Assembly (NCBI GenBank): GCA_013203345.1
Contig: JABMQF010000062.1
Span: 2,490-66,489, forward strand
DNA from: Candidatus Woesearchaeota archaeon
Lineage (GTDB): Archaea; Nanobdellota; Nanobdellia; Woesearchaeales; UBA11576
Reading direction: 5' to 3'
Length of the DNA stretch: 64,000 bases
The position numbers and the translations under genes were made by a program. Shown piece after piece: positions 24,073-28,363 of the stretch (within the stretch, counting starts at the first letter, position 1; each line of letters begins with the position of its first letter). The notes below the pieces were generated by a model. It was not told where the DNA came from, ran no database searches, and saw only the letters and a program-made list of their open reading frames with translations.

Positions 24073-24594
24073 TCACAGCTTGTAAACACTAAAAGACACT
24101 CCTCTCACAGTCACGCTGTTTGAAGGAGATAAGGTCAAGGGCCTGAAAATATTATCTGCAATGACTAATGTTCCTTTGAACTGCTCAACAAGCCTGCGCT
24201 CCAGCTTGTGAAAATAGTTGTCAGGATTGATGAATATGAAATCATACTTTGACAAATCCTCATCAAGATAGTCCATGCATATGAGATCCATTTCAAGACC
24301 TAGCTTCTTTGCCATCATAACAGCATCATTGTGCAGCTGCTCATCAATCTCTATTCCTGACGATGTCGTGAAAAGAGACGCGATTGCGACAACAACACCA
24401 TCACCAGAACCTAAATCCAGAAAAGCTCTTGATTTGCCAAGCTCCAGCTTACGAAAAAGTTCGTGCATATGTACAGGATCTGCTGATGCCCAGTAACCAA
24501 TGCTCGTCGGTCGCTGCGACTTACCCTGCGCGAGAAGACGCCCTTTCCTACGCATATACTCTTTGCTTATTGTATTAAAATCAGCAACAGTCAT
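24073..24594 (-). CDS. small class I SAM-dependent methyltransferase
   Basis: Motif I FLDLGSGDGVV. FINPD (motif IV-like NPPF/DPPY variant). Confidence 0.7.
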   Translation of the reverse strand: MTVADFNTISKEYMRRKGRLLAQGKSQRPTSIGYWASADPVHMHELFRKLELGKSRAFLDLGSGDGVVVAIASLFTTSSGIEIDEQLHNDAVMMAKKLGLEMDLICMDYLDEDLSKYDFIFINPDNYFHKLERRLVEQFKGTLVIADNIFRPLTLSPSNSVTVRGVSFSVYKL

Positions 24595-24675
24595 GATAAA
24601 AAAGGAGAAAGAGATGAGTTATTAACTTTACTTATTTACAGCAATAACTGTCTCGGATTTGCCTCTAATCACAAA

Positions 24676-25512
24676 TCATGCAGATCGGAGAGTCACTTTT
24701 ACTGCATGTAGAAACTGCTCTGCCTCCTTACGGTAGCGATCATAATTGTCTCCTGACACCTTATTAACCTCTCCAGACATAAGCATACGGCCAACATTAT
24801 GGAATTCTGCAAGTATTGAAAGATAACGCTTCTCAAGAATACCTGGAATCACAAGATGCTGCTTTGTAAGATCAACTAAATGGTCTGGAGTCTCAGGCAC
24901 AATACCCTGATGGAGAAGAGCTGCATGTGCAGCATCAACCACAGCCCAATGCAAATCAATAACTGCCTGCTTCATATTGAAATACGAATTAGCAACAGAC
25001 ATCGGTCCACGCTCAAGATATATCCAAACAATCTCCTCACAAGGAGATACTAGCTTTGATCCGAGCATGTTCTTTGCCATGCCAAAACAACCTACATCAT
25101 ACATCGCTTTGCCGTCACGCAGCATGTTCACCAGAATAGGATCTCCCTTCAGAGTGTAATCCCAGAATTTTGTAAGGGGCATAGTGGTTATGTGAAGTCT
25201 CTTTGATATATTCGCAGCAGTCTTCTCAGTTATGACACGATATGCAGTTATGACCTCAGGAGTCAACACATTAATCATATCATCAATTATTATAAGGATA
25301 TCTATGTCGCTGCCGAACAGGACCTGCTCCCTTGAAGAAACCTTACCTGTCCTGAAACCTCCCCTTACAGCAGAGCCAAACCAAACTACTGACTTAATAA
25401 AAGAATCAAGCTCCTTGCATATCCCATCAGAAAAGCGATTCACAATATCCTCTATCTCTTTAGGATTCGCCATATACTCCGTCCTCTTTGTCCTGAAATC
25501 CATTTTTACCAT
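24676..25512 (-). CDS. nucleotidyltransferase + C-terminal HEPN-like helical domain (KNTase-like fusion)
   Basis: WFGSAVRGGFRTGKVSS...LFGSDIDILIIIDD NTase signature. The C-terminal helical region (DLHWAVVDAAHAALLHQG) is paralogous to 27569-28363. Confidence 0.6.
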   Translation of the reverse strand: MVKMDFRTKRTEYMANPKEIEDIVNRFSDGICKELDSFIKSVVWFGSAVRGGFRTGKVSSREQVLFGSDIDILIIIDDMINVLTPEVITAYRVITEKTAANISKRLHITTMPLTKFWDYTLKGDPILVNMLRDGKAMYDVGCFGMAKNMLGSKLVSPCEEIVWIYLERGPMSVANSYFNMKQAVIDLHWAVVDAAHAALLHQGIVPETPDHLVDLTKQHLVIPGILEKRYLSILAEFHNVGRMLMSGEVNKVSGDNYDRYRKEAEQFLHAVKVTLRSA

Positions 25513-25551
25513 CTATTTTTCTTTTCTTATCACAAACAAAAAATCAAATAA

Positions 25552-27603
25552 TCACTCAAGGGGCATTCCACTCCAGAAAACCCAATCCTCTGTCGGCCTG
25601 TAAGCACCAACGACATAAGGCGGCGGGTTAGAATGACCAAAGTATGTCTCTGAAACATCTGACCAAGTAGTACGCTGCGGAGCAAAATAAGAGCCAGCAA
25701 TATCTGCACCGAACGCTCTCCAAGTCTCAAGCAACAACCTACCTTTTGTGAACTGCTCCTCCTCATGACCTTCTGAAACTATAAAACCACTAAAACCCTT
25801 GGCCCTCAGCCGATCAACAGCCTCGACAACAGGGAATATACCCTGCCCAGCAGGCAAGTGACCGTGAGCACCTGTCGCTGAATCAACAGCCTGAATACTA
25901 CCTATCACGTCCTCTTTCTGCATCCTATCAACCATCTCCAAGTACCAATTATTGAACCTGACCAGACGCTCATCTTCTGTCTCCCTCGGGTGATCCTTAG
26001 GAAAATGATTGATCCACATACCAAGATGCGAGGTGTCAAAACAACCACTTATATGTTTCTTGGCAGCAACTGCCGCATCTGACTTTGAGAACCCACGATC
26101 CTTGACAAGGTCATCTGCCATCTCCTTTCTCGACTTTTTGATCAAATCTATGAACTCATCAGGATGCCCACCATACGCTCCAGGCCAGCCAAGCTCAGGA
26201 CCAACATGTATAGGCCTTTCAACATGACGATTGTTTTTTGTCTCATCCATAGCAAATAATCCTGCTTCTGCATATGACTTGACAGCACTTTTGAGAGCGA
26301 ATTTCTCAAGTGACTGCATCCTCTCCATTGACATCAATGTTTCAGTTGCCTGCGCATCAGCAGCAGCAGAAGACTCATACATATGCTGAAGATCGTGATC
26401 CAGGCTCGCTAATGTTTCCCTGATAAGCTCTGTCGGCTTCTTAAACGTAGAAGGAAGAAAAGGAGAACCTGCGAAAAGAGGATCCTGCCTTTTTATAGTG
26501 TCAAGGTCCTCGTCACTCATCGACGACTCAACTTTTTCATAATAAACAAGCGCGTCCTTGTATGCGTCACGCCTCTTCTCCTGGTCCCTAAGATGTTTAG
26601 TATAATAAAGCGAATGACCCTTCTGCTGAATCCACTTGTTATCCATCTGCAGCCTAAACGCAAACTCAGCAGGAGTGTAATCCTGTTCGTGACGTTTATT
26701 GAAATCGCCCGTCCTCTTAACGACATCCTGCCAGGTAATCTGCTGAATATCAAAACTCTTTTTCTCCTCTGACCACTTAGGTACTCTGTGAATCAGCTGG
26801 TCTGGCTTGGTCGGATCTATCATCCTGTTGTCATGTGTGAGAAAATCCCCTTTCTGTATATGCACCTCATTATTATTCACATCCTTGCCCATGAAATCAC
26901 TATCAGCTTTTCTATACACCGGCTCGAAAAAATCAGTTGAGTGGCGTATCTCTCCCGTTATCTGACCAGTCTTAGTGTCAACAAGATACTCCTTTGCGAG
27001 CAGGTCCTCTCCTTCATATGCTTCAAACAACCCCTTATACTTCCCTTTCTGATTCCATTTAGCGTCGATGATATTCCTATGGAATTCCTGAGAGAAAATA
27101 TCAACACCGCCTCCACCAGATATATCCCCTATGAATCTTATAGCATCCTTTACCTCCTGAAGATCAGTCTGACGTTTCTCTTCTGATATAGACTGCCTCT
27201 GAGGATCAAAACCTGAAAGACTGCTCATAGATGAAGTGGGCATCTCAAGCCCTTCAATCTTGACATTGTTAGCGAGCTGCAACTCACGTAGATTCTCACG
27301 AACCTCCTTACCATATGCTTTAGGTCTTCCACCCATCGCCTGGGTATGAGGCGTACTCATAACTATCTGCATCTTGCTAGCACCCTGCCTTATAGCAGCG
27401 TCGACATTCTGAATTATGTGACCTCCTGTGACAGGATCCTTCTCTACAACAGTAACTCCTAACTCATTTATAGGAATAATTGGCTTCTCAATCTTAGGCT
27501 GAACTCCCTGTGAATCGTGAGATTCCCTGTCCATTGGCGAGTAATAAGGGCCAGAGCTGAACTGCATACTACATACCTCCTGCGTGCTTGCGCACAAAAG
27601 CAT
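25552..27603 (-). CDS. xylose-isomerase-like TIM-barrel (endonuclease IV / sugar-phosphate isomerase superfamily) protein with large charged insertion
   Basis: C-terminal SGCFDTSHLGMW resembles the CLDTCH metal site of endonuclease IV / sugar-phosphate isomerases. N-terminal part of the barrel near residues 40-180. About 300 aa of K/E/D-rich insertion between. Confidence 0.4.
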   Translation of the reverse strand: MLLCASTQEVCSMQFSSGPYYSPMDRESHDSQGVQPKIEKPIIPINELGVTVVEKDPVTGGHIIQNVDAAIRQGASKMQIVMSTPHTQAMGGRPKAYGKEVRENLRELQLANNVKIEGLEMPTSSMSSLSGFDPQRQSISEEKRQTDLQEVKDAIRFIGDISGGGGVDIFSQEFHRNIIDAKWNQKGKYKGLFEAYEGEDLLAKEYLVDTKTGQITGEIRHSTDFFEPVYRKADSDFMGKDVNNNEVHIQKGDFLTHDNRMIDPTKPDQLIHRVPKWSEEKKSFDIQQITWQDVVKRTGDFNKRHEQDYTPAEFAFRLQMDNKWIQQKGHSLYYTKHLRDQEKRRDAYKDALVYYEKVESSMSDEDLDTIKRQDPLFAGSPFLPSTFKKPTELIRETLASLDHDLQHMYESSAAADAQATETLMSMERMQSLEKFALKSAVKSYAEAGLFAMDETKNNRHVERPIHVGPELGWPGAYGGHPDEFIDLIKKSRKEMADDLVKDRGFSKSDAAVAAKKHISGCFDTSHLGMWINHFPKDHPRETEDERLVRFNNWYLEMVDRMQKEDVIGSIQAVDSATGAHGHLPAGQGIFPVVEAVDRLRAKGFSGFIVSEGHEEEQFTKGRLLLETWRAFGADIAGSYFAPQRTTWSDVSETYFGHSNPPPYVVGAYRPTEDWVFWSGMPLE

Positions 27604-28363
27604 CTATCTCCTTGAGAAAAAAATCAACATCTGAAAGATATGCATCATACTCCCTGCCAGATATCTCAAAGACTTCCCTATGCATTATTCTCTTAGCAGT
27701 GTCGTGAATATTTTCTACTATCTTCGCGCACCTGCTGTGAACAAGATTGCGACGCACAAGTTCATCCTTGACAATTTTGGCAAGATCATTAGGAGAAGGA
27801 GGAGTCATGCCTGCCACCATAACAGCAGCATGAGCAGCGTCAGTCACAGCCCAGTAAAGATCTATCACTGCCCTACCCACATTCTGATTAGCAGTCTTCA
27901 TAGAACGATCTGCCTTGAGGAAATAGATATTCACACTCTCTTTTGAAGGTCTCACCTTGCCCTTGACAAGAAGATCCTGAAGAGGAAGGAAGAAACCGTT
28001 ATCATGTATAGAATATGAATTCCTAAAAACATCCATAATTTTATCGTCTCGATTCTTAAAAGACTTCCAAACATCAGACGCTATCATGGAATCGCTCTGC
28101 ACAGAAAGACTGTTGTCATAAGCAATGCCTGCTGCAAAGATTTTCACTTCAGCTGCCTGCTGAGCAAAAACAACATTATTGAAATCATCAATTATGAACA
28201 TCATCTCCAGTTTATCACCATCTGGCCTATGCACTAGGATAGACGCCAAAATATCTTTATGCTTCTCGAGCACAGCATCAGCGACCTTGCCTGCATCAGC
28301 AAATCTACTACCACTAAATTTATCTGTGTTATGCTTCTTTATTGACTTAAGATCTGATTCCAT
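27569..28363 (-). CDS. KNTase-like paralog (degenerate NTase motif + HEPN-like domain)
   Basis: C-terminal DLYWAVTDAAHAAVMVAGMTP aligns with the 24676-25512 protein. N-terminal FSGSRF...RPDGDKLEMMFIIDD is only loosely NTase-like. Overlaps the start of 25552-27603 by 35 nt. Confidence 0.5.
   Translation of the reverse strand: MESDLKSIKKHNTDKFSGSRFADAGKVADAVLEKHKDILASILVHRPDGDKLEMMFIIDDFNNVVFAQQAAEVKIFAAGIAYDNSLSVQSDSMIASDVWKSFKNRDDKIMDVFRNSYSIHDNGFFLPLQDLLVKGKVRPSKESVNIYFLKADRSMKTANQNVGRAVIDLYWAVTDAAHAAVMVAGMTPPSPNDLAKIVKDELVRRNLVHSRCAKIVENIHDTAKRIMHREVFEISGREYDAYLSDVDFFLKEIDAFVRKHAGGM

Follow-up and report, generated by a model that had tools for sequence, protein, structure and literature searches.

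ANT(4')-Ia and LinB are described in the literature as homodimers with composite active sites, each chain consisting of an MNT domain and a C-terminal helical bundle. HEPN domains fused to MNT domains usually have no RNase residues and serve in substrate binding or regulation (PMC3710099). Among the barrels of the AP_endonuc_2 family, MJ1311 is listed as a predicted endonuclease IV (EndoIV) homolog of M. jannaschii (PMC2770678). The locus described here lies in a 64,000 nucleotide stretch of DNA (the window) and encodes relatives of both enzyme types within an uncharacterised operon that is conserved throughout the Woesearchaeota, which are tiny DPANN archaea. We suggest that it is a lineage-specific enzyme-plus-scaffold operon, whose two nucleotidyltransferase (NTase) paralogs pair in the manner of KNTase into a heterodimer that has a single complete active site, and we put the probability of this reading at roughly 0.55.

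Gene order and conserved neighbours

Four genes follow each other on the minus strand, at the positions originally predicted. In brief, they encode NT_up, a predicted catalytically dead NTase paralog of 264 aa (27569..28363), TIM, an AP_endonuc_2 (xylose-isomerase-like) TIM-barrel protein and predicted metalloenzyme of 671 aa (25552..27567), NT_dn, a putatively active MNT-type nucleotidyltransferase of 278 aa with a helical C-terminal domain (24676..25512), and MT173, a small methyltransferase (24073..24594). For NT_dn, the alignment suggests M4 at 25503 as a candidate true start. Intergenic spacing is tight across the cluster, with a Shine-Dalgarno-like motif within the end of the preceding gene. 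The 35-nt overlap of NT_up and TIM in the original prediction is an artefact of choosing the longest ORF, which starts at 27603. In the homologs, and in the 671-aa NCBI gene model, the protein begins at MQFS, residue 13 of that ORF. This ATG (27567-27565) lies 1 nt past the NT_up stop codon (27571-27569), and a GGAGGT precedes it by 7 nt inside the NT_up 3' end (27575..27580), as read directly from the minus strand. The cluster is surrounded by ordinary chromosomal genes.

Synteny over 80+ loci shows that the conserved unit across Woesearchaeota is (YhbY)-g489-g181-TIM-NTase, with one NTase per unit, and this is the ancestral gene order. The genes described above make up the enzymatic half of this operon, which is vertically inherited and specific to Woesearchaeota/Nanoarchaeota. 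Conservation of the arrangement in relatives, proposed as a check in the original prediction, was found for TIM and the NTase: of the 56 related loci whose downstream sequence extends for 3 kb or more, 48 have an NTase ortholog on the same strand within 4 kb downstream of TIM (within 300 nt in 18 of the 48), and a functional link between the two genes is therefore supported.

The most constant partners of TIM are two orphan coiled-coil proteins encoded just upstream on the minus strand, g489 (28911..30380) and g181 (28372..28917). Neither of them figured in the three-protein picture drawn originally. The 489-aa g489 is basic (pI 9.1), ends in a conserved YKNFKKAHxMLxW and is modelled by AF2 with beta-sheets and very long helices (pLDDT 82, pTM 0.70). 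It has no match in Pfam or NCBIfam, its structure has no Foldseek match at E<0.001 in PDB or BFVD, and its family comprises at least 1702 clusters, every one labelled 'hypothetical'. Its gene precedes TIM, in the same orientation, at 44 of 59 loci. The acidic g181 (pI 4.6), recognised by iterative HMM search and alignment, carries an N-terminal LPPEER[IL]K motif, and its gene separates g489 from TIM in 32 of 59 loci. In many related loci g489 is preceded by YhbY, a small RNA-binding protein of the YhbY/CRS1 (CRM-domain) type (30471..30749, minus strand; Pfam CRS1_YhbY, E 1.3e-22), whose functional membership in the cluster is uncertain.

MT173 is a DOT1-like Rossmann protein, as expected of the small SAM methyltransferase that had been proposed to follow NT_dn (Pfam DOT1, 32.6 bits against a cut-off of 23, 7.5e-8). 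Its best PDB matches are DOT1 (0.0035) and an RNA methyltransferase (0.0036). It occurs in 16 distinct related loci, a count that leaves out the window and loci L002 and L077 (both duplicates of L001), in four different positions and orientations, and is thus a recurrent, not universal, neighbour.

The 'sandwich' of two paralogs around TIM is present in the window's clade and is neither the ancestral nor the general arrangement, most Woesearchaeota having a single NTase. An obligate complex of dead NTase, TIM and active NTase, to which the paralog pair is intrinsic, would suit the adjacency and apparent translational coupling of the three genes in the window and 12 related genomes. We nevertheless hold it to be improbable, as most TIM-carrying lineages manage with a single NTase, often with unrelated genes in between, and as it leaves out the more constant g489 and g181.

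The TIM-barrel protein

The predicted TIM barrel was recovered both by Pfam (AP_endonuc_2, 39.9 bits against a cut-off of 31.1, covering only aa 513-620; residues are numbered on the 683-aa longest ORF) and by an AF2 model with eight barrel strands (pLDDT 89, pTM 0.84). With MJ1311 (3wqo), EndoIV/APN1, the D-tagatose/D-psicose 3-epimerases and UlaE it shares the (beta/alpha)8 fold and the AP_endonuc_2 family. Foldseek gave 3wqo/MJ1311 as the best match (E 4e-4), followed by psicose/tagatose epimerases, APN1/EndoIV and xylose isomerase; a profile with the insertion deleted matched UlaE (0.0017) and MJ1311 (0.0021) in the PDB. These relatives are reached with E-values of only 1e-3 to 1e-4, and no NCBIfam equivalog model, nfo included, matched TIM. 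TIM is a highly divergent AP_endonuc_2 member, and its likeness to characterised TIM enzymes is at the superfamily level only.

Unlike these relatives, TIM carries an insertion of approximately 280 aa between strands 4 and 5 (aa ~180-460; 26224..27066, minus strand) and a conserved, predicted disordered C-terminal tail. According to AF2 the insertion is confidently folded (pLDDT mostly >90) into a beta-rich subdomain (aa ~204-290) and a long antiparallel helical arm, a coiled-coil hairpin (aa ~291-457). An insertion of about 300 aa had been foreseen, but as a charged one; the sub-parts are not markedly charged, with a net charge of -4 each and pI 5.5-5.9. The tail (aa 636-683; 25552..25695, minus strand; pLDDT <50) ends in WSxVPLE, and Y668, P670, W677, S678, P681 and E683 vary little or not at all across the homolog alignment. 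The insertion is present in every TIM homolog found (566-760 aa), its length differing between clades, and TIM is therefore not an ordinary epimerase.

By alignment, nine positions matching the metal ligands of EndoIV/MJ1311 all appear to hold invariant metal-capable residues. The pattern E120/D168/E470/D523/H526/Q571/H580/H582/E611 is found in 106 of 107 TIM homologs; in the sole exception, P0069, three of the nine positions become His together. TIM keeps the core-ligand Glu, Asp and Glu (E470, D523 and E611) of the AP_endonuc_2 barrels, and its DxxH and HxH motifs align with the extra ligands of the EndoIV/MJ1311 type. Unlike in its relatives, three His ligands are exchanged for Glu, Asp and Gln: Q571 takes the place of the strand-7 His and is followed by H580/H582, and E120 and D168 stand at what we take, from the EndoIV structure and one covarying sequence, to be the positions of EndoIV His ligands. 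In a profile alignment with MJ1311, Q571, D574, H580, H582 and E611 are paired with H, D, D, H and E.

The ligand pattern bears on a second reading, nucleic-acid end-processing or repair, in which TIM would take a blocking group off DNA or RNA or cut it at a lesion, the NTase would add one or more nucleotides to the 3' end so freed and the methyltransferase would cap that end, in the manner of Hen1 in the Pnkp/Hen1 repair of RNA. Contact with the nucleic acid, or with the ribosome, would be made by the long helical arm, an arrangement for which seryl-tRNA synthetase offers an analogy. The invariant metal-capable positions, the joint return of three His in one homolog and the rank of MJ1311, a predicted archaeal EndoIV homolog, as best structural match are consistent with this, as are the weak matches of some NTase members to poly(A)-polymerase and pol-beta palm families, the frequent adjoining of RNA-binding YhbY and the RNA methyltransferase among the two best PDB matches of MT173. 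Against it, TIM and its insertion are acidic (pI 5.5-5.9), the nfo model does not match, Glu, Asp and Gln replace the three His in 106 of the 107 homologs, and sugar-phosphate epimerases match the TIM profile at least as well. Minimal NTases also lack the DNA-binding domains of polymerases, and MJ1311 itself presumably lacks the DNA-binding groove of EndoIV. We regard this reading as rather unlikely.

Two diverged nucleotidyltransferase paralogs

Motifs and profile matches place the NTase among the 'minimal' nucleotidyltransferases of the pol-beta superfamily, here with a helical domain fused to it. The intact GS...DID motif claimed for NT_dn is there as FGS...DIDIL, and FGS, DIDIL and RLHITT are invariant in the family alignment. 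Pfam NTP_transf_2 is recognised in 25 of 28 family members, with 4e-9 as the best E-value; NT_dn of the window, at 20.4 bits, falls just under the cut-off of 21. NT_dn is the ortholog of the single NTase in other Woesearchaeota; distant clades encode orthologs with 33-46% identity downstream of TIM.

The C-terminal half had been assigned as HEPN/KNTase-like, an assignment that our searches did not confirm. Isolated C-terminal halves gave no Pfam HEPN or KNTase_C match, and hhalign aligned only the N-terminal motif with an approximate KNTase sequence. Sub-threshold HEPN matches were seen in three of ten distant relatives, JGI annotates some family members as 'UPF0332 family', and the canonical Rx4-6H nuclease motif is absent from the family alignment. 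We consider the helical domain putatively HEPN-like and without a nuclease motif.

The family also has weak NCBIfam similarity to MntA, HalB and ANT(4'). Weak domain-level PADLOC and NCBIfam matches (PDC-S09, HalB, MntA) and the place of MNT-HEPN pairs, in the literature consulted, as the most abundant predicted toxin-antitoxin (TA) modules could suggest a TA or anti-phage defence island built from MNT/HEPN modules. The NTase and its helical domain are fused, not encoded by two genes, and lack Rx4-6H; inheritance is vertical and core-like, synteny is kept across the whole order, and the neighbourhood is ordinary chromosomal. TIM, g489 and g181 match no PADLOC system protein or PHROG beyond noise. 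This reading is disfavoured, and very improbable in our view.

GlnE modifies glutamine synthetase and MntA modifies HepT, and the NTase might in a similar way AMPylate or NMPylate TIM, for instance on an invariant Tyr or Ser of its tail, or the g489 scaffold. MNT domains fused to inactive HEPN domains have been proposed in the literature as protein-modifying regulatory enzymes, the gene for the NTase keeps strictly to the neighbourhood of TIM, and the tail is disordered yet invariant, with Y668 and S678. The MntA adenylyltransferase model is also the commonest weak NCBIfam match (18 of 28 members), but far under its curated cut-off, and such similarity is generic; the tail is equally explicable as a docking peptide. 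Regulatory nucleotidylylation seems unlikely.

NT_up and NT_dn are true paralogs, 28% identical over 196 aa by BLASTP (E 1e-28), and the motif of NT_up is degenerate, both as originally predicted: all 13 orthologs seen have lost GS and DxD. NT_up has conserved its linker and its helical C-terminal domain. NT_up is confined to the window's clade, being found as an intact ORF of 263-275 aa in 13 genomes (the window and 12 others, TIM identity at least 51%). In the L007/L010 pair dN/dS is 0.26 for its N-terminal domain and 0.05 for its C-terminal part. A second duplicate NTase with GS and DxD likewise lost, in locus L024, apparently arose independently.

The lost motifs, and an N-domain that evolves faster in NT_up than in NT_dn, might be read as marks of a functionless, pseudogene-like remnant of a recent local duplication. 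We find this hardly credible: it is contradicted by the 28% identity, the intact ORFs in 13 genomes and dN/dS values of 0.05-0.26, and the C-domain is as conserved as in the active paralog (mean identity 68% vs 67%). NT_up is old and under purifying selection. The original prediction had named a recent duplication and an ordinary epimerase found elsewhere as what would speak against it; the duplication is instead old and clade-wide, and the TIM homologs of 566-760 aa carry the insertion.

We compared the paralogs at the 72 positions with at least 85% conservation among single-copy NTase orthologs. NT_dn alone keeps 28 of these; the NTase domain holds 21 of the 72, and 16 of them survive only in NT_dn. 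The nine that only NT_up keeps all lie in the linker or C-domain, and two His, a Gln and a Gly are among them. The two copies complement each other only in part, their losses in the linker and C-domain being about equal. A NJ tree has long branches and does not resolve the date of duplication. The NTase gene of the window's clade was duplicated long ago into one putatively active and one catalytically dead copy, and NT_dn, which presumably kept catalysis, lost several ancestral linker and C-domain residues.

Proposed mechanism and comparison with known systems

In the enzyme-plus-scaffold reading, NT_up and NT_dn would form a head-to-tail heterodimer of the KNTase/LinB style, which we propose because the known dimer geometry of ANT(4')-Ia/LinB provides the rationale. 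We give about an even chance to this heterodimer, whose only complete composite active site would combine the N-domain of NT_dn with the C-domain of NT_up. According to the literature, related ANT enzymes such as AadA are monomers, which speaks against a dimer. The coiled-coil arm of TIM, g181 and g489 may assemble as a scaffolded complex; synteny and coiled-coil content are the basis for the scaffolding role of g489 and g181, and we rate such a complex somewhat below even odds. As for the chemistry, the metal centre of TIM would transform a phosphoester or sugar-phosphate-type substrate, the NTase would transfer NMP onto a hydroxyl of the substrate or product of TIM, and the methyltransferase would add an optional further step. 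This sequence of reactions is tentative, weakly supported and doubtful.

The NTase resembles ANT(4')-Ia and LinB in its N-terminal pol-beta-type NTase with G-S and DxD/E motifs, its all-helical C-terminal domain and its total size (~255-280 aa). It differs from them in that sequence similarity is limited to the ~50-residue NTase motif region, in being archaeal, chromosomal, core-like and TIM-linked and no resistance gene, and in that two diverged paralogs are proposed instead of a homodimer. MNT-HEPN proteins, that is the type VII TA pair MntA/HepT and the 'domesticated' fused GlnE/GlnD, belong to the same NTase superfamily. As in the fused enzymes the helical domain lacks the RNase motif, and some members are labelled UPF0332/HEPN; unlike MntA/HepT there is no two-gene TA pair and no Rx4-6H, and HEPN homology is only sub-threshold.

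To our knowledge, no enzyme/pseudoenzyme heterodimer has been described for NTases of the MNT-plus-helical-domain type, and none was found in the literature searched. Unlike the known enzyme/pseudoenzyme heterodimers, the pairing of NT_up with NT_dn is deduced. It shares with them a duplication, catalytic loss in a copy, NT_up, that is kept under purifying selection, and a partial reciprocal loss in NT_dn.

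Organization and conservation of the gene cluster

Seven closely spaced genes on the negative strand, read as ORFs in the window, span positions 30749 down to 24073. In order, these encode YhbY, a CRM-domain RNA-binding protein (92 aa), the orphan proteins g489 (28911-30380, 489 aa) and g181 (28372-28917, 181 aa), the upstream nucleotidyltransferase (NTase) paralog NT_up (264 aa), the TIM-barrel protein, here called TIM (683 aa as the longest ORF, which the residue numbers follow), the downstream NTase paralog NT_dn (278 aa) and the small methyltransferase MT173 (173 aa). The called GTG start of g181 overlaps g489 by 7 nt and is putative. 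TIM, NT_dn and g489 are 100% identical to the NCBI proteins HQ545_04400, HQ545_04395 and HQ545_04415, respectively. The original prediction was made for the last four of the seven genes and included a 35-nt overlap between NT_up and TIM. This overlap is an artefact of taking the longest ORF; the homologs and the NCBI gene model begin at MQFS. Direct reading of the DNA at the junction gives GGAGGT-ATG-TAG-T-ATG-CAG, and the real start codon of TIM is therefore at position 27567, 1 nt past the NT_up stop codon and 7 nt past the Shine-Dalgarno-like GGAGGT.

The cluster is flanked by ordinary chromosomal genes, encoding a Na+/H+ exchanger, a protein kinase, an LD-carboxypeptidase, an adenosine deaminase and a pilus/T2SS-F-like protein. 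Scans of the whole window for tRNA genes and Rfam families gave no matches, and a promoter and terminator scan was uninformative, the models being bacterial and the host archaeal. On the positive strand, 23624-24064 encodes a small protein without Pfam match, rich in Q/M/P in its N-terminal half and in G/S/K/Y in its tail; it adjoins the cluster only in the close clade. A divergent block at 20671-23394, also on the positive strand, is kept beside the cluster in the close clade; it contains g89, g211, a 330-aa HTH_8 (Fis-type) protein and a 226-aa rubrerythrin/ferritin-like protein. Further away in the window, ORFs of 750, 862 and 1225 aa (34829-37081 on the positive strand, 47938-50526 and 51561-55238 on the negative strand) have no Pfam match at E<=1e-5, and a 1063-aa NosD/beta-helix protein (57528-60719) is encoded nearby.

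Homologs of TIM form 169 clusters, all from Woesearchaeota/Nanoarchaeota MAGs and all with the insertion described below, with lengths of 566-760 aa among the matches listed. For synteny, we sampled 80 loci, one genome per species, and mapped the window proteins by tblastn and iterative HMM searches. TIM and the NTase are co-inherited: among the 56 loci that extend 3 kb or more downstream of TIM, 48 have an NT_dn ortholog that follows TIM on the same strand, no more than 4 kb away (47 counted by script, plus L009, which was missed through an over-extended ORF). The two genes lie within 300 nt of each other in 18 loci, and in two more an ortholog is nearby on the opposite strand. Upstream of TIM, g489 is present in 44 of the 59 loci with at least 3 kb of upstream sequence, and a recognisable g181 lies between g489 and TIM in 32 of these 59. 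YhbY often precedes g489 in the related loci. Besides the window, 16 distinct related loci have the methyltransferase, in four positions and orientations.

These locus counts and the placement of the NTase give (YhbY)-g489-g181-TIM-NTase, with one NTase, as the ancient conserved unit. Two NTase paralogs sandwiching TIM, as noted earlier, are thus a derived state. Of the synteny expected in relatives, the pairing of TIM with an NTase is found, and the paralog pair is absent beyond the window's clade with the exception of one distant locus, L024.

Many of the loci (L005, L006, L013 and others) come from binchicken co-assemblies titled 'uncultured Methanosarcinales archaeon'. These labels are probably wrong, because the MAGs encode the Woesearchaeota-specific cluster at 60-64% identity.

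The TIM-barrel protein and its partners

The middle protein is a TIM barrel, as originally predicted. It matches Pfam AP_endonuc_2 (PF01261) with 39.9 bits against a cut-off of 31.1, over aa 513-620 only, and the same domain is precomputed for nearly all TIM homologs. The AF2 model, built with 107 homologs in the alignment, has a pLDDT of 89, a pTM of 0.84 and eight barrel strands. Strands 4 (aa 165-170) and 5 (aa 465-470) are separated by an insertion of approximately 280 residues, which in the model starts with a beta-rich subdomain and continues as a long antiparallel helical arm, with pLDDT mostly >90. Both the protein and its insertion are acidic.

A Foldseek search of the model against PDB gave superfamily-level similarity only, and the leading matches were all AP_endonuc_2/xylose-isomerase-like. 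The best was MJ1311 (3wqo, 'D-tagatose 3-epimerase-like protein', E 4e-4), followed by psicose/tagatose epimerases (E 3e-3 to 1e-1) and APN1/endonuclease IV (about 2e-2 to 1e-1); xylose isomerase was also matched. Sequence searches of PDB with full-length TIM gave nothing useful, as coiled-coil noise prevailed. A barrel profile without the insertion matched UlaE (E 0.0017), MJ1311 (0.0021), a 3-keto-glucoside epimerase (0.0046) and DTE (0.06-0.08). NCBIfam gave no match at E up to 0.1, so neither an nfo nor an epimerase equivalog was hit. In an hhalign comparison with E. coli Nfo, for which an approximate sequence was used, only 11 residues (the DTxH segment) were aligned (E 0.17).

Where barrel strands 5-8 end on their C-terminal side, TIM has the residues of the conserved Glu-Asp-His-Glu metal-ligand set. 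E470, D523, H580/H582 and E611 are invariant in all 107 homologs and aligned with their counterparts in MJ1311, UlaE and DTE. The strand-7 His of the superfamily is a Gln (Q571) in 106 of the 107, and in the MJ1311 alignment Q571, D574, H580, H582 and E611 stand opposite H, D, D, H and E. The nine metal ligands of endonuclease IV (EndoIV), seven His/Asp and two Glu around a trinuclear Zn site, map, as we assume, onto E120, D168, E470, D523, H526, Q571, H580, H582 and E611. These positions are all metal-capable, with three His replaced by E, D and Q, and the pattern is identical in 106 of the 107 homologs. The sole exception, P0069 (683 aa), has jointly changed E120 and Q571 to His and gained a His two residues after position 168, which reads as an endonuclease-IV-like His pattern. 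Such covariation is expected if these positions share one metal site. Judged from its residues, TIM would be best described as an EndoIV/MJ1311-derived metalloenzyme in which three His have been replaced by harder ligands, and the metal centre is probably multinuclear.

MJ1311 keeps EndoIV residues and is not known to have the DNA groove. M. jannaschii is predicted to have an endonuclease IV homolog, and MJ1311 is the protein listed for it (PMC2770678). A nucleic-acid end-processing or repair module, in which an EndoIV-like enzyme would act together with the NTase and the methyltransferase, is an improbable reading of the cluster. The small SAM methyltransferase noted earlier after NT_dn is indeed present: MT173 scores 32.6 bits with Pfam DOT1 (cut-off 23), has the glycine-rich SAM motif I LDLGSGDG, and matches both DOT1 and an RNA methyltransferase in PDB at E ~0.0035.

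The last 48 residues of TIM (aa 636-683; window 25552-25695, negative strand) are predicted to be disordered in the AF2 model. This tail nevertheless has the invariant residues Y668, P670, W677, S678, P681 and E683, and ends in WSxVPLE. Conservation despite disorder suggests a docking peptide or a modification site.

The g489 family comprises at least 1702 clusters at 90% identity, all unannotated Woesearchaeota proteins without Pfam domains. The AF2 model of g489 (pLDDT 82) has beta-sheets and helices of up to 60 residues, and gave no credible structural match in PDB or among the viral models of BFVD. The C-terminus of the family is basic, with a conserved YKNFKKAHxMLxW. The acidic protein g181 is a coiled coil whose N-terminal LPPEER[IL]K motif is conserved. 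Synteny and composition suggest that g489, g181 and the helical arm of TIM may form a coiled-coil-mediated assembly.

The nucleotidyltransferase paralogs

The two proteins of approximately 270 aa around TIM are paralogs, with 28% identity over 196 aa (E 1e-28), and the original reading of one intact and one degenerate copy is borne out. NT_dn has F45-G46-S47 and D69-I-D71 (F-G-S and D-I-D-I-L), invariant in 28 of 28 aligned homologs, and thereby has the hG[GS] and [DE]h[DE]h motifs of the minimal nucleotidyltransferases (MNT) of the pol-beta superfamily. Pfam NTP_transf_2 matches 25 of the 28 family members (best E 4e-9); the NT_dn of the window itself scores 20.4 bits, with a gathering score of 21. 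In all 13 NT_up orthologs GS has become R-P/K-A and DxD is gone, and NT_up has no Pfam match. NT_up is homologous to NT_dn but, judged by its lost motifs, not an active member of the superfamily.

Against NCBIfam, the NTase family shows weak generic similarity to MntA, HalB and ANT(4')/ANT(9). ANT_4p_I matches 6 of the 28 members (best E 2.9e-5), no member reaches a curated cut-off, and the sole match of the window's NT_dn is ANT(9) with 13.7 bits against a cut-off of 340. PDB sequence searches with the NTase, by single sequence and by profile, gave nothing useful. A role for the NTase as a GlnE/MntA-like regulator, nucleotidylylating TIM or the scaffold, is one we would hold to be rather improbable. 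The wider family has 1280 representatives at E<=1e-3; many relatives (P0357, P0415-P0422, P0441, P0445, P0461 and others) are 400-670 aa long and either match over 2-3 stretches or are extended at the N-terminus by 130-200 aa.

The original HEPN/KNTase label of the C-terminal half is unproven: when the C-terminal halves of 10 family members were searched separately, with E up to 10, neither KNTase_C (PF07827) nor HEPN (PF05168) of Pfam was matched. Comparing the NTase profile by hhalign with an approximate KNTase sequence aligned only residues 18-77, the GS/DxD region. HEPN-family matches below threshold were obtained for 3 of 10 distant relatives, and some family members carry the JGI label UPF0332. 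The family has a conserved DLYWAVxDAAHAAL without an Arg 4-6 residues before the His, and the Rx4-6H nuclease motif is thus absent. This is in line with HEPN domains fused to MNT, for which such an absence has been described (PMC3710099). We rejected a HEPN ribonuclease or a HEPN-MNT toxin-antitoxin system: the motif is missing, the domains are fused and not encoded by separate genes, and conservation of the locus is vertical. We consider it very unlikely that the cluster acts in defence or as a toxin-antitoxin system. PADLOC and PHROGs searches gave generic domain-level or noise matches only, and on this basis we rejected a defence or viral origin.

NT_up orthologs are found only in the window's clade, that is, in the window, L005-L014 (TIM 58-64% identical), L085 (55%) and L086 (51%); the seven genes stand in the same order in all of these. 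The next-nearest lineages, L016, L027 and L031/L087 (TIM identity 45-48%), have a single NTase. Among NT_up orthologs, the mean identity is 68% in the linker and C-domain and 40% in the former NTase domain; for NT_dn orthologs it is 67% in both parts. Selection acts on both copies. For the genome pair with the least saturation, the dN/dS values of the N-domain and the C-terminal part are 0.26 and 0.05 in NT_up and 0.10 and 0.07 in NT_dn. The dead domain of NT_up is relaxed yet constrained, and NT_up is therefore no pseudogene; both copies are old and maintained. A recent duplication without meaning is very unlikely, as the dN/dS values show constraint on both copies.

We compared the paralogs at the 72 alignment positions whose conservation among single-copy orthologs is 85% or higher. 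Both paralogs keep 31 of these and 4 are kept in neither. NT_dn alone retains 28, including 16 of the 21 that belong to the NTase domain, and NT_up alone retains nine, all in the linker or C-domain and including two His, a Gln and a Gly.

In L024, a distant Nanoarchaeota genome (TIM 38% identical), two NTase copies at 6136-7059 and 10698-11573, both on the positive strand, flank TIM, and the upstream copy has lost GS/DxD here too. The N-domain of this second copy is 28% identical to its own neighbour, 22% to the single-copy proteins and 15% to the NT_up clade. These domain-wise identities point to a duplication independent of that in the window's clade, with the same outcome. They were used in place of a neighbour-joining tree of the family, in which both dead copies are basal, probably due to long-branch attraction; because of the long branches the tree neither dates the duplication nor confirms the independence of L024. 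The active/dead pair has thus probably evolved twice.

Possible function and comparison with known systems

KNTase and LinB are head-to-tail dimers, in which the N-domain of each subunit forms an active site with the C-domain of its partner; AadA, a related enzyme, is a monomer (PMC4631478). Given the pattern of retention and loss in the two paralogs, the simplest explanation would be that NT_dn and NT_up form a heterodimer with a single complete composite active site. We put the probability of this at roughly one half, tempered by the monomeric state of AadA and by the reciprocal loss being only partial. We further propose, more tentatively, that TIM may be held in a scaffolded complex. That the metal enzyme and then the NTase would act sequentially on a common phosphoester or sugar-phosphate-like substrate is a doubtful, though conceivable, third proposal.

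Going further, we speculate that g489-g181-TIM-NTase(-MTase) may be an unrecognised machine universal to Woesearchaeota. Here a coiled-coil scaffold of two orphans, one with a fold without known relative, would dock a multinuclear-metal TIM phosphoesterase via its arm and tail, and a dedicated NTase, which twice became an enzyme/pseudoenzyme heterodimer, would complete or control the reaction. As a whole this picture is unlikely. If true, the machine could serve a new form of salvage, envelope remodelling or nucleic-acid processing, linked to the dependence of DPANN archaea on their hosts.

Woesearchaeota are abundant, uncultured, genome-reduced archaea, and for most core genes specific to the lineage no function has been assigned. 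One core operon is now delimited: its gene boundaries are corrected, its constant partners number four or five, and it has a high-confidence enzyme model and candidate metal ligands. It adds an orphan family of at least 1700 members (g489) without structural relative, and its proteins become concrete and testable. The active/dead NTase pair is a natural experiment in turning a symmetric dimeric nucleotidyltransferase into an asymmetric enzyme/pseudoenzyme pair. If TIM is a phosphoesterase that derives from EndoIV and has altered metal ligands, the fold would have a wider catalytic range than is now known.

We found no description of the cluster in the literature library that we searched. MNT, AP_endonuc_2 and the class I methyltransferases are known superfamilies, and none of the domains belongs to a characterised family. 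What is new is a TIM family with an insertion and altered ligands, its constant pairing across an archaeal order with an NTase of MNT-plus-helical-domain type and two orphan proteins, and an active/dead NTase pair that probably evolved more than once.
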